From the IMG/VR virus record IMGVR_UViG_3300032235_000623, positions 32,001-96,000 of that record: a stretch of DNA of 64,000 nt; one strand, 5' to 3'. The translations under genes and the position numbers were made by a program. The notes beneath the pieces were generated by a model that did not search any database, was not told where the DNA came from, and saw only the letters and a list, made by a program, of their open reading frames with translations. Below are positions 11,870 to 49,320 of the stretch, one piece after another (position 1 is the first letter of the stretch; each line of letters begins with the position of its first letter). The stretch comes from a virus.

Positions 11870-12164
11870 ATTAGGAACAGACGAAGACAAGTTCGCTTGG
11901 TGGGACATTGCAGTCTGTTCTGGCATGGAAACAAATCTTTTTTATGATACATACGAGTCTGATCATAATATTGCAAAAAATATTGATCAAGCTTGTTTAT
12001 CTTGTCCAGTTATTGCAATATGCTATAAGAATGGAACTGAGAATAATGAGTATGGAGTTTGGGGCGGAGTTTATTTAAATTTCGGCCAGCACGATAAGCA
12101 AAGAAATACGCATAAGAGTAAAGAGATTTGGAAGGAATTGAAACGTAAACATGCCCAAATCTAA
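11850..12164 (+). CDS. whiB: WhiB-family Fe-S transcription regulator
   Basis: C..C-x2-C-x5-C and GVWGG. Confidence 0.9.
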   Translation: MSNILNELGTDEDKFAWWDIAVCSGMETNLFYDTYESDHNIAKNIDQACLSCPVIAICYKNGTENNEYGVWGGVYLNFGQHDKQRNTHKSKEIWKELKRKHAQI

Positions 12165-23734: not shown

Positions 23735-24027
23735 CAGAGTACTGGTCGTATCTCTTAGCAGCAATTGGCGTTACAGGCATATTCTTTGTTGGTCGAAAGA
23801 CCATTTGGGGATGGCTGATCTTATTATTAAATGAATGTATATGGATAGCATACGCATTAGCCACGGATCAATATGGGTTCATTATCATGGCTACAGCCTA
23901 TTCTGCTGTATATATTAAATCTTTTATATCTTGGAAGAAAGAAGAAAAAGAAGAACATATCTCACAATATGAGATTAATACTCATGGTCAAATAGATCAT
24001 AGATATATACATATTGATCGCAATTAG
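23731..24027 (+). CDS. PnuC-like small membrane protein
   Basis: Three TMs, K.IWGW motif. Confidence 0.55.
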   Translation: MTEYWSYLLAAIGVTGIFFVGRKTIWGWLILLLNECIWIAYALATDQYGFIIMATAYSAVYIKSFISWKKEEKEEHISQYEINTHGQIDHRYIHIDRN

Positions 24028-24497
24028 TGAAGCGCAAAAGTAGAGAGCAGAATTTCGAATATATGACAAAAAAAGAGATCATATTCGCCTTATATAATCA
24101 AGGCATGTCGTACCGACAAATCAAAGAGCAAACTGGCTTTTCAAAAGGCACCATTTCCTATCATTTGGGCGAAGGGGTCAAAGAGAGGGCAATGGATCGG
24201 CGGAAGCAGGATAGACATAAAATTACCACCTATATCAGAGAAGAAAAGGTGGGCAAGGTATGTATGGACTGCAGAGAAGATTATCCCCATTGGATTCTAG
24301 AATTTGACCATAGACCAGGGGAGGAAAAGAAATTTACCATTGGTACCCATAATATCGCTAGAGACAAATCACTAGATGAAGTTAAAGATGAAATAGCTAA
24401 ATGTGATATCGTATGTGCTAATTGCCATAAGAATAGGACATACTGGAGAAAGCTCAAGAATGGAGTCTATCCAGCAACCAAGGAACTATACGACTAG
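24027..24497 (+). CDS. HTH + HNH endonuclease
   Basis: SYRQI..SKGTISYH; CMDC, EFDH, CANCH. Confidence 0.8.
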   Translation: MKRKSREQNFEYMTKKEIIFALYNQGMSYRQIKEQTGFSKGTISYHLGEGVKERAMDRRKQDRHKITTYIREEKVGKVCMDCREDYPHWILEFDHRPGEEKKFTIGTHNIARDKSLDEVKDEIAKCDIVCANCHKNRTYWRKLKNGVYPATKELYD

Positions 24498-25049: not shown

Positions 25050-25202
25050 ATGAGCATACTCGACAATTTAGAAGCATATCTAGAATTAGAAGAATTAGAT
25101 CCACTTGGTAAATCTTGGAAAGATGCACCAGATTGGTGTGACGATTGTGTAGCAAATCCTGGAGAGAAATGTCCAGATTGTGGCTATACACATAATTGCT
25201 GA
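25050..25202 (+). CDS. small Cys-rich protein (50 aa)
   Basis: CDDC..CPDCG; leaderless-type start. Confidence 0.55.
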   Translation: MSILDNLEAYLELEELDPLGKSWKDAPDWCDDCVANPGEKCPDCGYTHNC

Positions 25203-25291
25203 AGCTCCACAAAATAGGACATATTAGCTCCTAGCTCCTATATCCCCCTCCTAATTATCTCCTCTCTATGAGCCTCCTAGAGGCTTTTAAA

Positions 25292-25317
25292 GTGGAGTAA
25301 AGTGGAGTATTGTGGAG
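25292..25317 (+). promoter_or_regulatory. MraZ-box-like triple repeat
   Basis: GTGGAG x3 at exact 10-bp period. Confidence 0.6.
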
Positions 25318-25674
25318 AATATTACTATCAATTCATGTCTAATTACTATTATTATATATAGATAAAGATATATGAGTAATTGAACACCATCTCACAATAT
25401 GGACGTAATCCCAATTTGAGCAATTTGCAGCATATTCTGCCATTTCTGTCAATAGTGGCATATTCAGGCAATTTTGTCAAGCCTTCGTAAAGGAAAAATT
25501 GTGCCCATTTCGCCAAAAATTTGATCCAAATTCTGACAGATATTATATCTATTTTATTATATTGTTATAACATTTTGTTATATTCTATATTCATTTTGTC
25601 TTATTCTGATCAAAATTTCAGGGACATTTTATAAGCTGTCGTAAACGAATTATTTGGCCCATAATTTTTTCATA

Positions 25675-25731
25675 GAAAAAGGACCTATACATCCAAAATG
25701 TACATCATGTACAAATCGGACATATAGGTCC
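25675..25731 (-). terminator. terminator closing the minus-strand block
   Basis: GGACCTATA..TATAGGTCC inverted repeat followed by T-run on minus strand. Confidence 0.7.
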
Positions 25732-25754
25732 AGTGGAAATATGTTTATTTAGTT

Positions 25755-26162
25755 TTATGGACCAACTGTTGCAACTGCCTGGAAATGAGCTGTTTCTCCA
25801 TGGTAGTCTCCATGTAGCCATTTCTTATCAGATTCTTGATATAGGTTCTCAATTGATTTAGTTTTATGTTGTTTTACATTAGGGATTTTGATATTATTAA
25901 ATTCCCGCTTTTCTTTAACTAAGTTAATTGCTTTATGTAGGTTATTGGCTAGGATTAAGCCTTCGCTTGTATTGCCTTCCGCCAACTCAACATCATATCG
26001 TTGCTTCATTGAGAATACGATATTTACAACGAGTTCCATTACCTTATCAACTGTATAAATTGGCTGATTAGATAAATGCCGTGCCACCGCTGCCGTGTTG
26101 AAGAAATGGTCTTCGACACATGAAGCAACTGTGTCTGCTAGTTTTGTTTCTCTTGGTTGCAT
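25755..26162 (-). CDS. hypothetical protein
   Basis: Own promoter copy (26192-26213) and RBS. Confidence 0.7.
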   Translation of the reverse strand: MQPRETKLADTVASCVEDHFFNTAAVARHLSNQPIYTVDKVMELVVNIVFSMKQRYDVELAEGNTSEGLILANNLHKAINLVKEKREFNNIKIPNVKQHKTKSIENLYQESDKKWLHGDYHGETAHFQAVATVGP

Positions 26163-26240
26163 TTGTTTCCGCCTTTTCTATAGAACCGTTGATTATATCA
26201 GAAAGGGCTGACTTGCGCCAGCCCTTCCCACATTATGAGA

Positions 26241-26387
26241 TTACTTCTTTGAGCTTGGGGTTTCTGCTGTAAACTTGATACCCTGCTTCTCTGCCTCTGC
26301 AAGTACGTTCTTTGCAGCTGATGAGAAACGACCACGGCGGCCTACAGAGATTCCCTTTGATACTAGATATTCACGCTTTGTTGTCAT
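26241..26387 (-). CDS. Lsr2 C-terminal-domain-like mini DNA-binding protein (48 aa)
   Basis: KREYLVSKGISVGRRGRFS; GAAAGGA RBS; TTTACA-17-TATAAT promoter. Confidence 0.65.
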   Translation of the reverse strand: MTTKREYLVSKGISVGRRGRFSSAAKNVLAEAEKQGIKFTAETPSSKK

Positions 26388-26513
26388 TTGATTTGATCCT
26401 TTCATGATCGGTTGTTATATATATTATATAAGATATTCACGAATTTGTAAATACCCTCGTAACTATTTTTTTTATCCCTTATATGTTTATTTAGTTATAT
26501 TAAATTAGTTATA

Positions 26514-27729
26514 TTAATTAACTAATTCGTAGTCATATGGGTCAATAGAGTTATCTATCTCTAATTGGATCCATTCTGTTCTATCTGCAGCATCAGCCTT
26601 TTCATAGGCCTCCTGCAAGCTTTCCGCCTCCACCTCCAGATAATACTTGTCTACAAGGTCTCCGAATATTTTGAATTTAGTCATCCTCTTCCTCCTCATC
26701 TTCTTCAAACATTAAGTCTGTCATAATATCATTATCTGTCATCCAGTCACGTACATCTTCGTAGTGCTGTTCTGCCCCGTATTCTAGAGAGAACCCGTGT
26801 CCGTTTTTAACAGACTCACACAGCCTGTCCCATACCTCATCCTCTGACATCTCAAAGCGGTACTCCTCATCGGCCATAAAACCCTTGATTGTGCTCCAGG
26901 TCCATAGCCAAACCAGGGATAGCCCCAGGTCCGTTGTATCTAGGATATCGAGACATTGGTTTAGTTTATCTTTATCTTGTGGCTTCACGTTGCTTGGTCC
27001 TTTCATTAATTGAGAATGCTAATTGATAAGTTAATCCATATACAGCAGTCAAGGCGTCCATATAGCCTTCGTTGTACAGCCGCTCCACAGTGTCATCGTA
27101 GTCTTCATCTGAGCCCAATTCATTTGAGTTCTGTAGAAGAGGAACGAGGACCTGCTCGCATTCATACATCATGTTCTTCAATTCACCATGCAGAATGTCT
27201 GTCCCTGACTCACCAAGGTCGACGAGTTTCTGCAGGCGTGGTTCTAGTTCTGTAGTGTTCATTGGGCCATTATATCCTCTGCCACTGACAAAAAGTGGCG
27301 GGTAGCAATAATCTGTCCATTGATAGAGATATCCTCAATCTCTAAAGACTGATACTCATTTGATTCCATTTCTTCAAATAAATCCATTTCAGCCTGTAGA
27401 GCCTCAGAATCTTGCTCTAAACTAATTAGATGTAACTTCATATATTCGATTAATTGATTAGACATTTACTACCTCATATCTTTGAGTTAATCTATCATAA
27501 TATCTAGCAGCCTGACATGTGCAACTAAATATACCTGGTACATCTGAACATTCCCATTTATGTTCATGCATGATCGAAATACCCTTCTGCCCATAGGCCT
27601 TGTAAGAAATCATGAGCCATAACTAAATAATTATGAATTGCAGGATTATCATCAGCATTGACCAATAGGTCAGCTTGATAAACACCATACGTCATATCTG
27701 CTAAATCTTTTTGTGTGTAGCCCAACATT
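26514..27729 (-). CDS. run of small acidic hypothetical proteins (26514..26684, 26677..26988, 26972..27262, 27259..27465, 27564..27729)
   Basis: Overlapping start/stop coupling. Confidence 0.7.
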
Positions 27730-27891
27730 ATTTTACTTCCCAATACTCTAGTATTAGATTTAATGCAGAATGGATATTGCAATCACAATCCCCACCCATG
27801 TTATCCATAAATTCTAGATGACTATAATTGTCATCATAGATTTCATCTACTAATTGACCTACTGTCATTGCTCTTAGTTTGCTAATAGTTC

Positions 27892-28665
27892 TCATGCTTC
27901 CACCTTTTCTGTAGATTCCAATAATACACTATGGGTCTGACATTCTTTCATAGCCTCTTCATCCTGCCAAGAGCCTTGGTTGCATTCTGAGCAGAATTCA
28001 CCACAGTCATCTTCACAATAATCTAATGTATTAAATGATTGGCAAGCATAGCAGCGATTCTCATATTCTAGAATCTCTTTTACTTCACCACGGACAATCT
28101 CATATTCCCCACCCCAACCTGTTTCTTCCTCATACTCCAATGTGAGCAGGCAGTTTGGAACAAGATTAGATAGTTTAGTTAGAATAGTTACAGCAGGTGA
28201 CCATGCAGTCTCATATTTATAGACAACCCAGTTGTCATCACCATCTGACTTATATTCAATTATTTCTGTGTTTGGATACTTGTCATCATCAGATACAGCC
28301 ACATCCCATTTGGTGCCCCAATTAGAATTATTCCATGAGTACCAATCCTTTTGAGTCTTAGCAAACTCAACAGATTTAGCAAACCAATTAGGGTCCTTCA
28401 TATCTACACCATCACGTGCAGGCTGGCAGGCATACTCCTCATCAGTAATACCTTCATCTTTATATGAGTGGATATTAAAGAAAGCAAAGACAGGATTAGA
28501 ATAAGTTACTTCTTTAAATTTGGTGGGGAAACCCATAGATGAAATATCACCCATACCATGTGTCTCAATAGCCAATGTAAAAGGCTTATTCAATCTATCT
28601 TTAATCATATCTACCTCAGACTTAGGTCCTTGGATAGTCAATGTGTTATATACCCAATTTGGCAT
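27892..28665 (-). CDS. DUF1281/YubB-like phage protein
   Basis: MPNW..N.L.I.G, DWYSWN..NWGTKWD, ETAWSP. Confidence 0.75.
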   Translation of the reverse strand: MPNWVYNTLTIQGPKSEVDMIKDRLNKPFTLAIETHGMGDISSMGFPTKFKEVTYSNPVFAFFNIHSYKDEGITDEEYACQPARDGVDMKDPNWFAKSVEFAKTQKDWYSWNNSNWGTKWDVAVSDDDKYPNTEIIEYKSDGDDNWVVYKYETAWSPAVTILTKLSNLVPNCLLTLEYEEETGWGGEYEIVRGEVKEILEYENRCYACQSFNTLDYCEDDCGEFCSECNQGSWQDEEAMKECQTHSVLLESTEKVEA

Positions 28666-28826
28666 TATCGGCACACTCGCTTTGTTACATATTTGTAATA
28701 TGTATATGCTTTAGAAGATTTATCCTTAACTTGATATCTCTTATATGTACATACCTCAGCATTTGCTGGGGCGGAAACAATAGGAAGTAATCCTAGTATA
28801 ATACCTGCGATAATAGTTTTACGCAT
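28665..28826 (-). CDS. small secreted cationic two-Cys peptide
   Basis: Signal peptide ending ANA; mature EVCTYKRYQVKDKSSKAYTYYKYVTKRVCR; ACGAAAGGA RBS. Confidence 0.7.
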   Translation of the reverse strand: MRKTIIAGIILGLLPIVSAPANAEVCTYKRYQVKDKSSKAYTYYKYVTKRVCR

Positions 28827-28909
28827 TTTATATCCTTTCGTTGATATAAGAGAATTATACATTGGACCACCGACAAATGGAATAGATATGCTGTGTGAAT
28901 TGGACCACA

Positions 28910-28983
28910 TTGTTAGGTTTTGATCAAAGCTTGTTAGGTTTAATTAGATCTATTGTTAGATTTTATCAATCATTGTTAGGTTT
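28910..28983 (+). repeat. iteron-like direct repeats TTGTTAGRTTT x4
   Basis: Starts 28910, 28931, 28953, 28973. Confidence 0.8.
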
Positions 28984-29064
28984 GTGGTCAATATCACAGA
29001 ATTTCAGGAGATTTTGACTTGACCTCGTAAAAGAAATAATGTACTCTCTTGTCTTTGTGGGCAT

Positions 29065-29219
29065 AAAAAGATCCCCCGCCGATACCGCAGTATCAAGCGG
29101 GGGAATTATAGTAGGGCTGCCTGGCCAAACGAAAGGAATTAAGTAAATGCCTGCGTACTTAGCGACTTGGCGAATGCCTTAGTAGCCGCACCCCACATCC
29201 AAAGACAAACTAGTTGCCT
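29065..29219 (-). ncRNA. candidate ~150-nt sRNA with anti-SD tract and terminator
   Basis: TGATATAAT at 29226-29234, nested stems, CCCCCGC..GCGGGGGATCTTTT terminator. Confidence 0.45.
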
Positions 29220-29231
29220 AGGATTATTATA

Positions 29232-30199
29232 TCATACTGGAAGAAGTTCGTCCGAATACTTTTCACAGAATGCGGACAGGTCCATGGTAAATAAAGCCTC
29301 ATTCTTCATTCCACGTACCTTGTTTGACTGATTCCTAAAGTCATCTTGCTCATGAAGACTAAAGGTTTGGTCCTTCCAATTAATTACAGGAATCTTGTGC
29401 TCATTGTCTGATAGAGAGTTGACCTGTAGACCCCAGCCAGTCTCCATATTCCATTGGTCACCAATTAGACGTGATGTAGCAATGCGTGTTGCATATGAAT
29501 CATCGTTCCAACGTGCTCGTGCATGGACTACAGCATCCGCTAAATTCTTTAGCATGTCATAGCCAGCCCAGTGTCCGTATAGTACAATTGTCTCTCCGCT
29601 ATCCTGTACGAATACGAAGTTTGCTCTGTTACCCATTTTATTCCGCCGTTTCTAGTTGAGGTGTTTCTTCTGTCTTATTCAATTCTATAATTTCATATGA
29701 CACCTTGTCAAGTGCCTCTTTATTTTTATTGTAGTGGTGCCCGCAGAAAGCTAGCTCGCCTTCTACTAATTTAATTAAATACATAGCTTGGGCGGACCCA
29801 CATTGGTCGCAGCCAATCCATCTATTTAAATCGTCTGTGCTCATATATTATTCTCTTCGATCATATCAGCAAGACGGTCAAGCAACCAGGTATCGATATC
29901 GTTAATATCAATCTCTCGTAACTTTTCTATGATTTCTTCACGAGCAAATTTATACCCGTCATCAAATCCATCTTTATAATCTGACATATTATCTCCTAAT
30001 AACCTGTTGTTTCATATTCGCTAAAATAAGTTTCAGTTAAGTTAAACTTATCTCTAATGCGACTTACTTTCTCAATACTACCAGTTCCAATGTTGAAAGT
30101 CAACGGTCCAATTAGTTGAGGGTCAAGTCCAGTTATCTCGGCATCCCAGAAGGCCCTTTGCAGGGCCAACTGAGATGGAGCGGTGAGTTCAAAATACAT
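29232..30199 (-). CDS. small hypothetical proteins (29232..29636, 29638..29844 Cys/His-rich, 29996..30199)
   Basis: ORF track, coupled starts. Confidence 0.7.
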
Positions 30200-30855
30200 T
30201 AGTAAGCCTCACGAACATGGCAGACTTCTTGCTCATCAATAACGATGTTGCCATCCTGTGCATCGACATATAGCGCATCTGTAATTTCTGATTCAAGGTC
30301 ATAATCTTCTAATAGATTTAGTGTAATTGTTCCGCTAACTTCAACAGTTGCGGTAAATTCCACATCCTTGGTTAATTCAATGCCAAGCGCTTCAGCAATT
30401 GACTGCAAAGTATCTTGGTCGTCTGAATCAGCATATGACTCAAGAATAATATCTTTAACTGTATTAATCTTAGACTGAAGCAGGCTAACAGTTTTCTGTG
30501 ACTGTCGTCCATTGTGCAGGTCCCACTCAAGAGATGCAACCTTTGATGTTGTATATTCAGGGTCAGAATATCCGTGAATAACTTTATATGTAACTAGTAA
30601 ATCAGGATTGTAAGCAACTGCAGGTGAATGAAATGCATCTGAGCCAATTGTTGTTGTTTCCATCGTTTCCTCTTTCGTTGTAGTTATAGGTGGTATTGTA
30701 GCATCTTCCACTGACAATAATGTGCAATTAGAGTTGCAACGACATGTGAGGTCCATCACACCCGCTGGCCATCCATATCCATCTTTAATTGTATATTCGA
30801 TTAAAGCATCACAGTCTCCCGTGCATACCCAGGTGTATTTCTGATATGTTGTCAT
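30199..30855 (-). CDS. hypothetical protein with internal in-frame promoter/RBS/start at 30663
   Basis: Leaderless-type start 30855; second cassette 30695-30716 inside frame. Confidence 0.65.
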   Translation of the reverse strand: MTTYQKYTWVCTGDCDALIEYTIKDGYGWPAGVMDLTCRCNSNCTLLSVEDATIPPITTTKEETMETTTIGSDAFHSPAVAYNPDLLVTYKVIHGYSDPEYTTSKVASLEWDLHNGRQSQKTVSLLQSKINTVKDIILESYADSDDQDTLQSIAEALGIELTKDVEFTATVEVSGTITLNLLEDYDLESEITDALYVDAQDGNIVIDEQEVCHVREAY

Positions 30856-30980
30856 GGCGAGTATTGTACAGGACCCCACTGACATTTACAAGGATTTTCG
30901 GGAAAAAGCTTTGTGATACGTAACACATTTTTTTGGCCTTCAGATCTGGGGGCATCTCATTATCTGAGATTCAAATCTTG

Positions 30981-31054
30981 CGATCTGTATGGGACTTGAA
31001 CCCACGACCTCTACCGTGACAGGGTAGCGCTCTAACCAACTGAGCTAACAGACC
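30981..31054 (-). tRNA. tRNA-Asp(GUC)
   Basis: GGTCTGT/ACAGATC, loop CTGTCAC, TTCAAGT. Confidence 0.93.
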
Positions 31055-31095
31055 AAATGGTGAGCAGTTTTAAATCTTGCTCAGGATTTTATTAT

Positions 31096-32103
31096 TTAGA
31101 AGGCTTTAACCAACTTCATAATTTTATTTTTTTCTGCAGTTAAGATTGGGTCAAAACCGCTTGCACCCGCCATTAGGGATTCAGAATTTCCACGTGATGT
31201 GCGGAAATAATCTAGACGTTCAGTTAGCGCATTGAATGCACCCCACTTTGTGCCCTTGATATTAGCGTTAGTTGGTGAGTTATGATACAAGTCATCAAGA
31301 AGAACAACTTTGTTTTCCCACTTTGTGAGAGCAATTTTAGATGCATCTTCTTTTGGCTTTGGATAAATTGTCTGAATCAACTTTGAAAATTCGGCGTTAG
31401 TAATCTCTTGCTTGAAGAGTTCCTGCGCTTCTTTTTCAAATTCATCAAAGTAACCAAGTGCAAGACCAAGAGTCTCACGAGCAACTTGAATGCGACCTTC
31501 TACAGATTGCGTGTGGCGAATCTTGAAAGATTGCTTTGCATTACGCATTGCAAGATTCAAAGTGTTTTGGCATACAACACGAACAGGGGTAATTGCTGCT
31601 TGAACAGCAACAGAACCGTCGTGTGATGTCCATACAATTAAATAAAGTTTAGTTGCATCGTTAGCGCCTTGTGGGTCAAGCACCATTGTGCGAGGAATAT
31701 CCACAGTGCCGAAAACAACTTTGCCCTTTTTCAATGAGCCAGCAGATTCCCAACGGCAGTCAGCGTTGGCATCATGAATTGCATCAGCGAATGCAAACAA
31801 TTCTTCATTCTGCACAGGCTTGTAGCGCTTTCCAACAGTTGCAAGAACATCAGTCCCGCCATTGAATGGATTAGTGCGAACAACTAAAGATGAATTTGAA
31901 ACATCGTTCCAAGATTCGTCAATGTGATTTGTGATTGGAGATAAACGAACATCCCAATTTGCTAACTTTGCTTCTTCAAGCATTGTTGCAGTTGTAACTT
32001 CCTCATCTTGTGAGAAGATACGATTTGCAAGGTTGTGCCATGCAGGAGCGCCACGAAGAGCAAATGCAACTTCGCCGTTTTCGACTTCGAGATTGTGAGC
32101 CAT
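31096..32103 (-). CDS. DUF932/DUF945-family (TIGR03299-like) phage protein
   Basis: PAWH.L, VG.RY.PVQN, SHDGS, TPVRVVCQNTL, WGAFNALTE; start MAHNLE after CGAAAGGA. Confidence 0.85.
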   Translation of the reverse strand: MAHNLEVENGEVAFALRGAPAWHNLANRIFSQDEEVTTATMLEEAKLANWDVRLSPITNHIDESWNDVSNSSLVVRTNPFNGGTDVLATVGKRYKPVQNEELFAFADAIHDANADCRWESAGSLKKGKVVFGTVDIPRTMVLDPQGANDATKLYLIVWTSHDGSVAVQAAITPVRVVCQNTLNLAMRNAKQSFKIRHTQSVEGRIQVARETLGLALGYFDEFEKEAQELFKQEITNAEFSKLIQTIYPKPKEDASKIALTKWENKVVLLDDLYHNSPTNANIKGTKWGAFNALTERLDYFRTSRGNSESLMAGASGFDPILTAEKNKIMKLVKAF

Positions 32104-32281
32104 ATTTTTTCCTTTCGGTTGATTGATTTGGCAATTATAGCAGGGGGGTCTGACATTGTAAAGGATTAAAGATAAGATGTCCGAATTGTCTAACGTGATC
32201 AATCTCACAAAATTTTGGGAGTTTTCCACAGCTCGTCGTAAGCCTGTGGATAACCCCTCAGTTGTTGCGGGCACAATTTGA

Positions 32282-32305
32282 GGGGCGGGAAAAAGATCCC
32301 GCCCC
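32282..32305 (-). terminator. GC-rich hairpin terminator
   Basis: GGGGCGGGA..TCCCGCCCC just after stop of 32311..32568. Confidence 0.6.
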
Positions 32306-32310
32306 AAGCT

Positions 32311-34305
32311 TTAAACTAGTCCCAACTCTTCAGAAGTTAGTTTATATTTATTGTGTTTGTTTACTGTTTCCATTGGTAGAAAGATTGCTAGCGTCTTCTG
32401 CTTCTTCTTATTATCATAAACATAAGCACGAACAGTGCCAGCAAATCTACGTAGGTTTGAGAATACCATTTCAGATAGATATTCTCTATTTACTCCCTCA
32501 TCAGAATAAATAGTTAAATCATTTGCTTTGTTATCATCATAGATTTCAACTCTAAAACGATTTTTCATTTGATTACTTTCTGTTAGTAGTTATTTTGGTT
32601 GAGCAGTTTAGCACTTGACTTACTCAGGTCAGGGTTCTTTTGCTTTAGAGTATTCTAACATAGGGGGCTAGTTTTGTCTAGCCCCCATTTTATTAGAGAT
32701 ACTTAGCAATTTGCTTCATAGTAGAAGCATTTACTGTTTCCTCATCTGTCATCTTGAGAATTGTTAGGGCATTTGTGATGTCCTCTACAATTTCATTGTA
32801 TGTGTGTTGGTGCATGATTGTGAAATCACGCTCAGGCTCTTTAGGGAAATCGCTTTCCTTTACAATTAAATCAAAATCAACATTGAGAGAGTTGTTCCAA
32901 GAGCGATAGTTTGTGCGGAAGTTTTCAGCCTTCTTGATGTTTGCAATAGCAAAATCCTGAACTTCCTTACGCCACTTTTCTCTTGACTTCTCATACTTCG
33001 CTTCGTTTGCACCCTGCTCAGCATAGTCTTTCTTGATTGTTGCCAACTTTGTTTCCAAAGCCTTGATTACCTTTGGTGTTGCCACCTTTACTGTGATTGC
33101 TCTTGACATAGTTTTTCCTTTTCTATTTGGTTGAGGTTTTAGTATAACATAGGGGTCTGACAAACCCCGTAGGGTGAGAGTTCTTACTTACGACATTGGG
33201 CGAGAACACTCTCTAAACTGCCCCTGTTTCGATTTACTTACTCAGCGTATGCAGAAGTCCAACGCTCTGTGCCATTTACATCTAGCAAGATACGATTAAC
33301 TCCGCTTGGGTGATTATCAACCGCTTTGATAATACCTGTGATACCGCTTGCTGTTGTTGTGTATGTCTGACCGATTTCCATTTGTTTCTCCTTTGTTTGT
33401 TTGTTGGTAGTATTATAGCCTATGCCACTGACATTTTTAGTCTTCTTCGGTGTAATCTTCCTCACACCAGGCGCTTAGGTGGTGCTGTTCAATAATTGCC
33501 CAGGCAGGCGCTGTATCCATGCCTCGATAAGATACTCCTTCAGGCATTGAGATTTCACGATTTAGATCGTCTTCCCAGTATGCATCTATAGCATCTATGC
33601 AAGGTTGCACCATTGATAGCGGGACGGGTGGATAGTGATTACCCTGTAAGTGATAACCAATTGAAGCTTCTAGGCTTAAGCCCAATTCATCTGTTGCTAA
33701 TTCATAAGCAAGATTACTTCCCATTTATAACCTCGTTTCCAATAGTTTCCATTTCGTCAATAGACTCCATAAGTTCTTTTACTTGACTTTCGGTAAGTAG
33801 AATTTTAGTTGCCTTATCTACTGCAAGGCTAGCGATAGCGCATGAGTAAAGATAAATTCCTTTAGCAAATTCTTCATTACTCATTTCGTTATGATTATGT
33901 GTTAGGTATCCAGCAAGCCCCATAACTTCTTCGTCCATTATAGAGTCGCTAGTTGCTTCGATTAGAGCATAAGCGGTTGATAGCATTTTTTCCCTTTCGT
34001 TTGTTTTATGGAATTATAGCAGGTGGGTCTGACAAGCAGACCCACCCTATCAATTATGCTAGGGCTATGTAAGCCTGAGAGTAGCCTTCATTTACACGGT
34101 CAAGTTCATCCTGAATTTCAGACTTAGACATTAGAGAAACTTTGCCGATTAACTCACGAATAGCGCCTTCGTTCATCTGATTAAAGATAGCGGTTGGCAT
34201 TTTGCTTACTTGCTGATACATTGAACCTTCGATATCCAGTTTAGATACGAATTCTACGCCATCAACTGTGAATGGAAATAATGCCCATCTAGTCATATCT
34301 TTCAT
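32311..34305 (-). CDS. small hypothetical proteins (32311..32568, 32693..33109, 33238..33381, 33437..33724, 33714..33986, 34054..34305)
   Basis: Most have their own promoter copy and RBS. Confidence 0.7.
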
Positions 34306-34485
34306 TGTTTTACCTTTCGTTTGTGTTATGCGAGTATTATAGCGGAATGCTCTGACAAATCATAATCCATTTACGGCGTGTCGCAGCTTTTGTGATAAAC
34401 CTCACAAATTTTCAGGGTTTTCCACAGGTACCCGTAAATTGTGGATAACCCCCACGCCTTTGCGGGCATTTAGTTGAAATTTCAA

Positions 34486-36861
34486 CTAATTAAAAAATGG
34501 AGCTACAAGATCACAATAAGTTTTTAAATATTTTTCTTTTTTGTGTTTTGTTTTGCGTGTGTATTTTTTCTTTGAGGGGATCGGAGTCGCCGCATTACTG
34601 CGGCGCAACTCCTGAACCTTCTTTACTTTTTCTGTTGCCATTTTATCCTCTCGAATTAAAACTAGGAACTTGATAACCACTCGCCTCATGAAATTTTGTT
34701 ACGTTAAAATTTGGATTTTCTTTTGCACACAATTCTGAAAAATCTAAAACCATTTTAGAAAAAACAGCGGGATGAGTTTTGTTAGAATTATACTTAAGAA
34801 TTTCAGCGATAGCCTCGAAGTGCTTGCGTGTCATTGTCATACTGTTACAACCTTTCGTCCTTCACGATAGAAAATTTTTGTGTAGCATTTTGCAGATGGT
34901 GTAAAGATATTTACAGTTGAGTATTCGTTAGCGAAACCCCAATCTGTGAAAGCAAAAAAATCTTTCCATGCTGCCATTTCATCATCATATTCATGAGACC
35001 AATGCGGAGCATTTGAATCATAAGCCAAAGTAATTTTATACATTAGATATTCCAATCGTCTAGAGCACACTCACACGCTTCTACATCATAATTATTTTCA
35101 TCTCCCCAAAATAGGAAACCTGCACCACCGCACTCATCACAAGCAACGGCAATAATTTCTTTTAAGTCTGACATTAGTTTTCCTTTCGTTCTGTTGTTGA
35201 AATTGTAGCAGATAGCACCGACAAGGCTTCGGATTTGCTTGCTTGGCGTGTCGCTAGGATATGAGCCTTAAATTCTTCTAGGTTCATTAGAGAGCACCTT
35301 CCTGAAATAACTCGATTTCGATATCTAACTTTTTTTCATCTGATAATTCATCGAACGAAACCCAGCCTGCGCCTTCTTCGTCCATTTTAAAAAATTCAAT
35401 GTATCCCATTATTATTCACCTACCTTTACTGCAACTGTTCGGAAAGTTGTGCGGAAAGAGTTTTTAGGTTGAACCTCGACAAGATAAGAATCGCAACCTT
35501 CATACCAAACCGCTTTAGGGTGAGGTTCTGCGTTAATGATAATTCCCTCAAGAGTCTTTGAGAAATATTGCTTACCTACTAAGAGGTTCTGGACTGAATA
35601 TACATTTGCTGACATGGTGTCCGCCTTTCGTTTGTTTCTATATCTGGAATTATACACGAACGGACTGACATTTTCCAATTTGGCAAGGGTTTGTCTCAAT
35701 ATGTGGAGCGTGGGCTATGTGATAAGCATCACACGCCTAATGTGATAACCATCACACCAAAATGTCCGTTTTGTCTGTCAAATCGACACGCCGTAGAATT
35801 TGGGGCTTTTGATAACGATTACGTAACGACACGCCCGACGCCGCAGTATTTGCGGGCCAGCTTGATTTTGTCAAGTCGACACGCCGTTAGTTAGCGAAAA
35901 TCTTTTATGACTTCCCTCACATCTTGTTTTAATTCGTGCCACATCATGCGCCCCATATATAGGGCGGGGATCGCAAGGGCTAATTGTACTAGTGTGGTTA
36001 GTAGTCTATTCATTACTTATCTCCAAACATATCGAAAACTTCATCTAGTTGTTCATCTGTTAAGTGGTCAATACTAATAGCCTTAGTAAATCCGAACACA
36101 TCTTCTTCTTCTGCCATTAGATTTTCATACATTTCTTCTTCTGCTAGGTGTGCGTACTGGTCGCTTACATCTGCTTGAATAGTATCCCATTTAGTCATCA
36201 TTACTTATTTACCTCTACTTCTCTAACGATAAAGGAAAACCCTTTACCTAATTTGTTTAGTTCTTCAATTACGGCTAAGATTTCTTCGGGCTTATTAGCC
36301 TTGTTATTAACGCTTAGTAGTTGAGAGCCTTGCCATAGTGAGTAAGTGATAGTCATTCGTTTTCTTCTTTCGTTAGTTTGTTTAATAAGATTAAGGTACT
36401 ACATAGGGCTGACATTTGCAACCCTAAAGGGGGTGTGTTGCGTGTGAGTTACCTCACAGGCAGTTTATACACTCACAACCCTTAGAGCGGATAAGGTAGG
36501 CTAACACCTCTTTACGGGTATAAGCGTCTAGACCATAGGAGGACTTAACGCCTCCATTGTGGTATTCATGCACGATAGTGCTAAATAGTGTTTCTGTTAG
36601 TTGAGTCATTTGTGACTCCTTTCGTTTATTTATTAGGATAATCTTTTCATACTTATTTAATTTTTTCAAGTCTATTTGGTGTGGTGTCTATCACACTAGG
36701 CTAGGGGACTTATCGTAGGTGTAGCCTACGCCTGTCTCATAGTATGCGAACATCTGTTCGGTTTTATGAGTTCTATCTACTGTGCAGAACATGTCCTGCG
36801 GTTCGCCTGTCCAATTACAGGAGAGGCACTTACTTACTAGGTGTGATAATACTTTTGTCAT
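34486..36861 (-). CDS. small hypothetical proteins (34486..34641, 34643..34840, 34837..35043, 35412..35615, 36013..36201, 36454..36609, 36691..36861 and shorter ones)
   Basis: RBS cassettes and coupling. Confidence 0.65.
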
Positions 36862-37200
36862 TTTCTGACCTTTCTAGTTAATCACCTTGATTAACTTTCT
36901 TTATACTATAATCATATAACGGGGGTCTGACAAAAATCAAGTCGCAACACGGATAAATCGGACATTTTGAAAACTAATTTCAAAAAACCCTGTGATATGC
37001 CTCACAAACATGGGCGCACTATCCGAAATGTCCGAATTTCTACAGGTGTGTATCATACAAATAAAAAATTTATTAACATTTTTAGAAATCTGATTTTGCA
37101 GCTGATCGCAAAAACGCAAAATTCAAAAAAATATTTTTATTAACATTTCATAAACTTGAAATATCAGTTGACTAGAATTTAATTGATATATAATAGATAC

Positions 37201-49290: not shown

Positions 49291-49320
49291 GAAGATAAAA
49301 TGATATAATAAGGAGTAATT

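Follow-up and report, generated by a model that had tools for sequence, protein, structure and literature searches.

Putative host-read regulatory cassettes in a small-gene block of an uncultured lake phage

Why should a phage gather look-alike sites for several different bacterial regulators in one stretch of tiny genes? The window, i.e. the whole 64,000-nucleotide stretch analysed, belongs to a 108.8-kb viral contig from an uncultured lake phage. This contig encodes WhiB, which indicates an actinobacterial host, and the phage shows distant kinship to Streptomyces phages; the predicted host is based on these two features. A first-pass annotation had described an early block loaded with host-regulator boxes and proposed that this supposedly first-entering DNA either senses the host state or serves as a decoy. 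All the motifs that it listed were recovered at or near their positions, but the dominant element, a set of 14 core promoters of the PafBC (RecA-NDp) type, had been missed. The block, in which most genes have no known family in Pfam or PHROGs, includes the following.

25755 to 37119 (about 11 kb), minus strand: small-gene block of about 38 genes (ORF and ribosome-binding-site map, Pfam, PHROGs, tRNA search)
27892 to 28674, minus strand: DUF1281_C-like gene (Pfam/PHROGs)
29638 to 29844, minus strand: DUF7455 gene (Pfam/PHROGs)
30980 to 31054: tRNA-Asp, inside the block (tRNA search)
31096 to 32103, minus strand: DUF932 gene (Pfam/PHROGs)

The regulatory layout of the block is conserved in 80 relatives, whose orthologous sites are not independent counts. 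No homologue of CRP, DnaA, MraZ, a WYL protein or a sigma factor was found encoded by the phage.

The window contains 15 copies of the pattern TGTCRG-N10-TAnnnT, where 1.12 would be expected, and 14 of these copies are located on the minus strand between 27269 and 36932, each with a ribosome-binding site and ATG, or a leaderless ATG, downstream. Motif definitions were in part picked after the sequence had been viewed; an unbiased k-mer scan placed ATGTCAG and TGTCAGA among the words most enriched in the block, with 11 and 10 gene-strand copies, respectively, and 0 on the opposite strand. The TGTCRG element ('-26 element') lies at -28 to -23 and has A at position 5 in most block promoters, while the -10 element is TAnnnT, often preceded by TGn. 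Promoter and leader (with the AACGAAAGG ribosome-binding site) form a repeated unit of 60-70 nt. The promoters, all on the minus strand, are listed with the centres of their CRP-type boxes.

36911 to 36932: TGTCAG-N10-TATGAT, block head; CRP-type box at -94.5
36393 to 36414: TGTCAG-N10-TACCTT; CRP-type box at -64.5
35649 to 35670: TGTCAG-N10-TATAAT; tandem CRP-type boxes at -83.5 and -106.5
35202 to 35223: TGTCGG-N10-TACAAT; no CRP-type box
34336 to 34357: CRP-type box at -69.5 (out of phase), DnaA-type pair beyond it upstream
34013 to 34034: spacer is the 3' arm of a hairpin; no CRP-type box
33412 to 33433: TGTCAGTG-N8-TATAAT; CRP-type box at -53.5
33141 to 33162: TGTCAG-N10-TATACT; no CRP-type box
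32134 to 32155: promoter of the DUF932 gene; CRP-type box at -74.5, DnaA-type pair upstream
30863 to 30884: leaderless ATG (30855) 7 nt past the -10; CRP-type box at -63.5
30695 to 30716: within a long ORF; CRP-type box at -64.5
28854 to 28875: TGTCGGTG-N8-TATAAT; CRP-type box at -54.5
27921 to 27942: TGTCAG-N10-TATTAT; no CRP-type box
27269 to 27290: leaderless ATG (27262) 6 nt past the -10

In a 55-sequence footprint of the DUF932-gene promoter region, all elements are conserved. The motif published for PafBC in vivo is tGTCgg(N10)tA(N3)T, where the HTH of PafB touches -23 to -28 (PMC8635444), and such promoters of mycobacteria and other actinobacteria are read by sigma adaptation (PMC8635444; PMC11804915). 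The phage promoters resemble them in the 22-nt bipartite structure, the position of the upstream element and the lack of a conserved -35 in the phage genome, and the TGTC(A/G)GTG variant is common to phage and host-like genomes. They differ in being lined up, all 14 on one strand, before tiny genes of unknown function, in the frequent A at position 5, and in the TGn and the CRP-type sites upstream that many of them have. Host recA-type promoters are followed by an SOS box and these are not; their PafBC dependence is predicted. In many relatives a -35-like hexamer (TTGATA, TTGTAA) is found 17 nt from the -10, so some promoters may fire without PafBC. The block probably forms a separately regulated phage gene class of at least 14 short transcription units, whose core promoters would copy the promoter type of the actinobacterial PafBC DNA-damage regulon. 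PafBC activated by single-stranded DNA would sit between the -26 element and region 4 of sigma-A ('sigma adaptation'), allowing the host polymerase to start.

The second element is the palindrome TGTGA-N6-TCACA. With 0-1 mismatch, 13 sites (6 perfect) were found, all within 28894-37006, compared with 2.86 +/- 1.68 expected in the whole window; 0 of 100 shuffles reached 13, and outside the block the 108.8-kb genome holds only one more site, with 1 mismatch. The earlier annotation had counted ten CRP-type boxes, and enrichment over background is borne out. That the boxes were nearly all intergenic is roughly right, since eight are cleanly so but five reach into the final codons of the ORF upstream.

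28894 to 28909: CRP-type palindrome, 1 mismatch
28983 to 28998: CRP-type palindrome, 1 mismatch
30745 to 30760: CRP-type palindrome, perfect
30912 to 30927: CRP-type palindrome, 1 mismatch
32194 to 32209: CRP-type palindrome, 1 mismatch
33451 to 33466: CRP-type palindrome, 1 mismatch
34391 to 34406: CRP-type palindrome, perfect
35718 to 35733: CRP-type palindrome, perfect; in tandem with the next, centres 23 bp apart
35741 to 35756: CRP-type palindrome, perfect; tandem partner of the preceding
35906 to 35921: CRP-type palindrome, 1 mismatch; no adjoining PafBC-type promoter
36443 to 36458: CRP-type palindrome, perfect
36680 to 36695: CRP-type palindrome, 1 mismatch; upstream of gene 36454-36609, which lacks a core promoter of the PafBC type
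36991 to 37006: CRP-type palindrome, perfect

An iteron-like array is located at 28910-28982, between the first two of these boxes.

Nine of the 14 PafBC-type promoters have a CRP-type box upstream, in steps of about 10 bp, with centres near -54.5, -64, -74.5, -84 and -94.5, i.e. on a single helix face; the box at -69.5 is out of phase. In about 95 sequence-distinct groups from 82 loci, the gap between box and TGTCAG clusters at 8, 18, 27-28, 37-38, 48-49 and 58 nt. Class I CRP promoters (E. coli lac P1 type) and the CRP/GlxR/Rv3676 regulons (PMC10187061) share the upstream 16-bp palindrome and the 10-bp positional steps. The phage boxes, however, are about 3 bp off the E. coli class I register (-61.5, -71.5), their partner core is of the PafBC type instead of -35/-10, and their density is far above that of any host-like genome searched. 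At the nine promoters the palindrome would be placed as for an activator that touches the polymerase.

At two promoters a putative DnaA box pair, composed of TTATCCACA and an inverted TTTTCCACA with 13-14 bp between them, stands just beyond the CRP-type box. Both inverted pairs had been noted before.

32222 to 32253, minus strand: DnaA-type pair, gene strand TTATCCACA-N14-TGTGGAAAA, 12 nt upstream of a CRP-type box
34418 to 34448, minus strand: DnaA-type pair, gene strand TTATCCACA-N13-TGTGGAAAA, 11 nt upstream of a CRP-type box

In relatives the second box of the same module is direct (N12) or inverted (N14), and the CRP-type box follows 11-14 nt further. The same 9-mer occurs in pairs at oriC of small actinobacterial genomes, with the N12 direct pair in the dnaA-dnaN oriC of genomes G122 and G043. 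This shared geometry could mean that the pairs, and the four 21-bp CTAACAA repeats of this genome, are phage replication origins that recruit host DnaA and are activated transcriptionally by neighbouring promoters; the phage's own Toprim-type primase gene and the iteron-like array with its flanking CRP-type boxes would agree with this. Nevertheless, DnaA-type modules number 1 to 4 per genome, each before a different gene, and the array is found in this phage genome only, so that we regard origins as improbable. T5-like phages carry DnaA-box arrays in the injection-stop region (Davison, bioRxiv 10.1101/866236). There too, a large virulent siphovirus has conserved consensus boxes within a non-structural region, but in T5 they occupy a large non-coding, injection-linked region, whereas here the pairs belong to promoter-upstream modules adjoining CRP-type boxes.

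Putative sites of two further regulators are found, an MraZ-type triple closing the block and an SOS box near its head, both as first annotated.

25292 to 25317, plus strand: MraZ-type triple GTGGAG-TAAA-GTGGAG-TATT-GTGGAG
36747 to 36760: SOS (LexA)-type box CGAACAGATGTTCG, sole copy in the genome

The triple comes immediately after the hairpin AGCCTCCTAGAGGCT, at the block's 3' boundary, and fits exactly the pattern GTGGWG-N4 x3 (bioRxiv 10.1101/2022.02.09.479790), for which 0 matches are expected even with 2 mismatches. It is conserved in 46 of about 52 relatives' loci reaching that position, and its placement is unlike that of an operator of a phage gene. The segment bearing the SOS box is absent from 80 close relatives. 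Overall, the matches to CRP, DnaA and MraZ sites and the one LexA box are far beyond chance and conserved across the phage family.

Six host-like genomes (G099, G043, G122, G073, G014, G013) were searched for the stricter motif TGTCRGTG-N8-TAnnnT. It was present in 5-8 copies per genome in G099, G043, G122 and G073, of 1.4-1.5 Mb (control, 0-1), including one before recA in G122, and in neither G014 nor G013. An adjacent pair of WYL-domain genes in G099, G043, G122, G073 and G014 suggests that these small genomes carry pafBC. Of 121 Actinomycetes genomes, 117 encode a CRP-family HTH; in the small ones there is just one such protein, of 230 aa, with the helix RETVNK, and the helix RETVGR reads TGTGA in E. 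coli (PMC10187061). No perfect TGTGA-N6-TCACA was found in five small host-like genomes, so the lineage's presumed use of this consensus is deduced from the protein helix only. The MraZ triple pattern occurs in 82 of the 121 genomes, mostly at one locus (before mraZ in G013), and the phage SOS core also precedes recA in small actinobacterial genomes.

Taken together, these features are best read as cis-regulatory cassettes recognized by host regulators, an explanation that we hold to be somewhat favoured by the evidence. Host-regulator look-alike sites on PafBC-type promoters suggest that the phage probably couples the block genes to the state of the cell, and these genes would then respond to single-stranded DNA or damage, cAMP and the cell cycle. 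From sequence we infer the binding by host proteins, the transcription start positions and the biological purpose. Of the two roles first proposed, sensing of the host state fits, because the sites exceed chance, are conserved and match the consensus checked in actinobacterial genomes. Virulent phage phi29 of Bacillus reportedly carries Spo0A boxes on its early promoters and origins. It would similarly combine several consensus sites for a host master regulator with a programme that follows host physiology; there, a single regulator is a repressor, whereas here several are predicted and the main one would be an activator.

A pure decoy, in which replicating phage DNA titrates PafBC, CRP, DnaA and MraZ and blunts the damage response, replication initiation and division control, fits less well and seems rather unlikely. 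The phage sites are indeed closer to consensus than those of host-like genomes (six perfect CRP-type sites against none in five genomes), PafBC-type motifs number 14, compared with 5-8 in each of the four host-like genomes that have the stricter motif, and no phage gene is evident that the MraZ triple could control. However, the helical phasing of the CRP-type boxes and the fixed distance from DnaA-type pair to CRP-type box argue for cis-regulatory elements. A sink would need neither this phasing nor the single strand orientation and the ribosome-binding site and ATG after each site, and two DnaA pairs is a low number next to known titration loci. Titration may occur as a side effect.

Phage factors might read the motifs in place of host regulators, TGTCAG marking a temporal class (through an activator similar to MotA or through a shut-off repressor) and the palindrome serving as operator for a small phage dimer, with its likeness to host sites due to coincidence or mimicry. 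About 35 small block proteins are of unknown fold, weak HTH matches were found in two phage proteins (one at 24027-24497 of the window, the other from a 47-aa ORF located beyond it), and the motif set is confined to the clade and absent from more distant relatives. On the other hand, no recognizable DNA-binding domain was found in the block, and four to five unrelated motifs each equal a different host consensus exactly, found at the expected host loci, for which coincidence is very unlikely. We therefore consider phage factors a doubtful explanation, although less so than the decoy or the origins.

Host-read cassettes are also compatible with recombination as a side effect. That the cassettes are chiefly substrates for shuffling small genes, their sequence content being incidental, is very improbable, since exact host-regulator words and 10-bp phasing would be left unexplained. 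Such shuffling would account for the repeated promoter-leader unit and for the mosaic gene content between cassettes, where most relatives lack a counterpart of segment 36691-36861 and of the last block gene. The PeSL (promoter-early stem-loop) cassettes of T4-type phages are said to be plain sigma-70 early promoters. They are likewise repeated units, some overlapping a hairpin, that flank small genes in a mosaic region, but they have no host-regulator sites.

Finally, a few motifs stand apart.

34375 to 34383, minus strand: orphan motif, gene strand CGACACGCC
35245 to 35253, minus strand: orphan motif, gene strand CGACACGCC
35784 to 35885, minus strand: orphan motif GGCGTGTCG, three gene-strand copies (35784-35792, 35827-35835, 35877-35885)
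35812 to 35827, plus strand: ATAAC-N6-GTAAC, single site, not significant

The assignments to GlnR/MtrA and to WhiA found no support. ATAAC-N6-GTAAC is a single site, with a chance expectation of about 0.2, and no more than 5-8 of 81 relatives retain it. Five exact copies of CGACACGCC are indeed present, against about 1.5 expected with 1 mismatch allowed. TTGACA follows two of the three GGCGTGTCG copies.

The block at 25.7-37.1 kb of the window carries about 38 small genes on the minus strand (hereafter the gene strand), of which only three fall into Pfam families (DUF932, a DUF1281_C-like domain and DUF7455). When the sequences downstream of its CRP-type palindromes were aligned, a second element surfaced. 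The pattern TGTC[AG]G-N10-TAYAMT occurs in 11 copies in the genome, every one of them on the minus strand of the block. With a looser -10 (TGTCRG-N10-TAnnnT), the block has 14 copies, all on the gene strand, and one more lies elsewhere; 1.12 would be expected in the window. A ribosome binding site and an ATG follow 25 to 49 nt past the -10 of these core promoters, and in six cases the ribosome binding site is the block-specific word AACGAAAGG. In two cases (window positions 30855 and 27262) the ATG lies 6 to 7 nt after the -10. Leaderless mRNAs are typical of actinobacteria, and the spacing suggests that the genes starting at these two positions are probably expressed from such mRNAs.

Outside the block, plain extended -10 promoters (aaaTGnTATAAT) lacking the TGTCAG element serve the rest of the genome, and the block is therefore a separately regulated class. 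Intergenic promoters outside the block, on the plus strand (e.g. at 49301, 54159 and 66074), consist of aaaTGnTATAAT without a -35, TGTCAG or palindrome. On the two strands of the whole genome, AACGAAAGG has a single copy besides the six before block genes, and it lies inside the block on the opposite strand. Promoter and leader therefore form a repeated cassette. Hairpins with their 3' arm within a promoter spacer were observed at 32569-32692, 34013-34053 and 33141-33170 (e.g. GGTGGGTCTG...CAGACCCACC); the terminator of one unit thus overlaps the promoter of the next.

With a transcription start 7 nt past the -10, as we infer here, TGTCAG would occupy positions -28 to -23. The in vivo motif published for PafBC is tGTCgg(N10)tA(N3)T, and the HTH of PafB contacts positions -23 to -28, the "-26 element" (PMC8635444). 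The 22-nt layout, derived here independently for the block promoters, is the same as that published PafBC (RecA-NDp) layout (PMC8635444). No -35 consensus was found in the 11 aligned promoters of this genome, yet in many relatives a TTGATA or TTGTAA stands at a distance of 17 nt from the -10. Two other interpretations of TGTCAG, as a MotA-box-like phage element or as a misplaced -35, were replaced by the PafBC reading on account of the match to PMC8635444 and of the host-like genomes described below.

The host is likely to be an actinobacterium, since the phage encodes a WhiB protein (window 11898-12071) and has a portal protein with 57% identity to its counterparts in Streptomyces phages of the Stanwilliamsviridae, e.g. 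BillNye. The low G+C content (about 37%) had first suggested a Gram-negative or T5-like host, a reading rejected on account of the WhiB gene and the portal protein. When the ribonucleotide reductase (RNR) gene was used as a host probe, it recovered only phage contigs mis-binned in unrelated MAGs. Contigs of the family (L086-L100, one of them 109.9 kb) have been deposited within MAGs labelled Saccharibacteria, Bacteroidia, Brevundimonas and a cyanobacterium; these are binning artefacts and could mislead host assignment. The IMG/VR source contig is 108,849 bp long and estimated to be 91% complete, the window corresponding to its bases 32001-96000, and nine tRNA genes lie in the window. An Rfam search returned tRNA-Asp only, and megablast against phage records gave no match. 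A search of the phage genome for tyrosine integrases found none, which speaks against a temperate lifestyle; the family is virulent-looking.

This phage family is abundant: lake metagenomes contain at least 253 related contigs. The motif set is carried by all 80 relatives fetched from among these, although counts across related genomes are not independent events, and it is also present in a relative whose RNR is 79% identical. It is absent from BillNye and from two more distant contigs, G004:C13 and G005:C2. This distribution marks the system as an innovation of this clade.

Among the host-like actinobacterial genomes, two WYL-domain genes lie side by side in G099, G043, G122 and G073 (complete, 1.4-1.5 Mb) and in G014. 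The pattern TGTCRGTG-N8-TAnnnT occurs 5 to 8 times per genome in four of the six host-like genomes searched (0 to 1 in the reversed control), and is not found in the other two, G014 and G013. One copy stands in front of recA in G122. In this 1.5-Mb genome, three PafBC-type promoters (L131-L133), that of recA among them, are each followed within 5 to 25 nt by an SOS box, TCGAAC-N4-GTTCGA. Domain searches detected neither a WYL protein nor a sigma factor (regions 2 and 4) encoded by the phage.

The first-pass annotation, made by a model from the sequence alone, had described the region as loaded with boxes for host regulators, and the CRP-type boxes are the most numerous of those it named. Their enrichment is confirmed: the window contains 13 copies of TGTGA-N6-TCACA with at most one mismatch, where 2.86 are expected, and none of 100 shuffles reached 13. 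All 13 sites (6 perfect, 7 with one mismatch) lie within 28894-37006. The genome as a whole has no perfect site besides these 6, and a single one-mismatch site lies outside the block. The palindrome stands upstream of 9 of the 14 promoters, with centres at -53.5, -54.5, -63.5, -64.5 (twice), -69.5, -74.5, -83.5 (with a second box at -106.5) and -94.5. In the 80 close relatives, the more distant contig L106 and this genome, 8, 18, 27-28, 37-38, 48-49 or 58 nt separate the palindrome from TGTCAG, and this ladder with its 10-bp period holds in about 95 groups with otherwise unlike intervening sequence. A 10-bp ladder is the mark of a protein obliged to face the transcription complex, and would be unexpected for a passive sink. 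Compared with the class I positions of E. coli, the phage register is about 3 bp off. An iteron-like array of four direct CTAACAA repeats, 20-22 bp apart with GATC-containing spacers, lies between two CRP-type boxes (28910-28982); of the 82 genomes compared, this is the only one to have it.

Of the 121 Actinomycetes genomes sampled, 117 have a CRP-family regulator (110 of 114 without the seven unpublished ones, all seven of which matched). Each of the four small genomes examined (G099, G043, G122 and G112) encodes just one CRP, 230 aa long, whose recognition helix is RETVNK. The corresponding E. coli helix, RETVGR, reads TGTGA; the actinobacterial variants have Asn at position 5 and Lys at position 6 (PMC10187061). 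No perfect CRP-type site was found in five host-like small genomes, a result that carries little information. The phage itself yielded no CRP or cNMP domain in CRP HTH and cNMP domain searches and tblastn.

The two DnaA-type pairs noticed in the first pass are likewise present, as two perfect TTATCCACA boxes and two partners with one mismatch. Across the 82 related loci, the gene strand carries 346 copies of TTATCCACA and the opposite strand 58. Homologous modules have as their second 9-mer either a direct TTATCCACA after 12 nt (62 distinct contexts) or an inverted one after 14 nt (63), and in both forms a CRP-type box lies 11 to 14 nt beyond the pair. The pairs were at first read as a hairpin or terminator; the relatives whose second box is a direct repeat in the same module argue against this, and the reading was dropped. 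The 9-mer, being orientation-free, behaves as a unit recognized by a protein would. It recurs in the dnaA-dnaN intergenic region (oriC) of G122 and G043, where an N12 direct pair is among its copies. In the footprint upstream of the DUF932 gene (55 distinct sequences), GCCC, the box pair, the palindrome, CGGACAT, TGTCAG and the -10 stand out from variable flanks. No DnaA homologue was found in the phage by tblastn.

At the end of the block, the reported MraZ-type triple (25292-25317) is an exact GTGGWG-N4-GTGGWG-N4-GTGGWG, with 0 expected even when two mismatches are allowed. The MraZ operator of B. subtilis consists of three GTGG[A/T]G with 4-nt spacers and is unique in that genome (bioRxiv 10.1101/2022.02.09.479790). 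Three GTGGNG with N4 spacers were found in 82 of 121 Actinomycetes genomes (78 of 117 without four unpublished genomes), typically at a single locus whose core is GTGGAGTA[AC]AGTGG; in G013 the triple precedes mraZ by about 65 nt. The 16-mer GTGGAGTAAAGTGGAG is common to the phage triple and several Actinomycetes genomes. Conservation among the relatives was followed by anchoring on the DUF932 gene, as the mosaic region made the last block gene unusable; the triple is kept in 46 of the approximately 52 loci reaching far enough, always with the same hairpin alongside. The phage triple does not occupy a promoter region: a terminator-like hairpin precedes it in a non-coding zone between convergent genes, and no gene clearly follows it. 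No MraZ homologue was detected in the phage by tblastn. At 25660-25735, a long inverted repeat (GGACCTATA...TATAGGTCC) enclosing the palindrome TGTACATGATGTACA and followed by a T-run sits where the block ends, in an AT-rich non-coding zone of 550 bp.

The LexA-type SOS box was also located, matching the actinobacterial TCGAAC-N4-GTTCGA at 14 of 16 positions, and it shares its 14-nt core with the box that precedes recA in G122. It is restricted to this genome and L106, its segment being missing in the 80 close relatives.

Taken at the level of sequence, the most economical reading is that the block is a set of promoter cassettes relying on host regulators. PafBC would be the obligatory activator of the block promoters, CRP a phased co-activator, and DnaA an upstream modulator or origin factor. 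Single-stranded DNA activates PafBC (PMC11804915), so the block may fire once phage replication or host attack yields ssDNA. In that case the block, which had been called early, may not be early at all. The annotation had also raised the possibility of a decoy. A datA-like decoy, made of sites without cis-regulatory geometry, does not fit sites that are phased, in a single orientation and promoter-linked; titration of regulators by replicated phage DNA may occur as a secondary effect. A more far-reaching scheme, which we consider rather unlikely, would join the two. In it, the host ssDNA/damage alarm (PafBC) would trigger the approximately 38 small genes as an arsenal for takeover or counter-defence, with cAMP-CRP and DnaA as gates, while the near-perfect sites, as the phage genome multiplies, would also drain PafBC, CRP, DnaA and MraZ from the host chromosome, so that one block would both read and rewrite host damage, metabolic and cell-cycle control.

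Some phages are known to borrow one regulator of their host, e.g. LexA, Spo0A or CRP. In the literature searched, no accessory-gene block built wholly on PafBC-type promoters, phased CRP-type sites and DnaA pairs was found described, nor were PafBC promoters found linked to phages. If true, the reliance on host regulators would represent a natural viral use for sigma adaptation and offer a testable model of lake phages sensing ssDNA, energy and cell-cycle state in streamlined actinobacteria. The block would also be a source of compact natural promoter parts with defined regulator inputs.

The sequence ATAAC-N6-GTAAC, previously assigned to GlnR/MtrA, is present, but the assignment is not upheld: it is a single copy where about 0.2 are expected by chance, and is kept in 5 to 8 of 81 relatives. 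The CGACACGCC motif was found as reported, and CGACACGCC/GGCGTGTCG is a real family-wide word (277 and 120 copies in the 82 loci). Its assignment to WhiA gains no support from the consensus of that factor (GACAC), which is too short to discriminate. It is only a thought that the TGTCG core of the word resembles the -26 element. Further orphan words are CGGACAT and GCCCGCAA. A domain search of the phage found no HTH_3 reader, and a weak hit at 19.4 kb of G000 in the search for phage-encoded readers proved to be a Toprim primase. Just outside the 3' end of the block, 24027-24497 (plus strand) encodes a 156-aa protein whose N-terminal HTH matches (HTH_38, HTH_40, ArsR) stay below threshold and which also has a Cys-rich stretch; it is a candidate phage regulator. 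A 48-aa protein encoded at 26241-26387 (minus strand) contains KGISVGRRGRFS, by eye like the RGR AT-hook of Lsr2 DNA-binding domains, and has no Pfam hit. Finally, the distant contig G004:C13 (L118/L119; 27.8 kb, binned with an Aquiluna MAG) carries a dozen TGATATAAT sites, many followed by an ATG 5 to 7 nt on. Judged by this spacing, they would form a run of leaderless transcription units without any host-regulator words.
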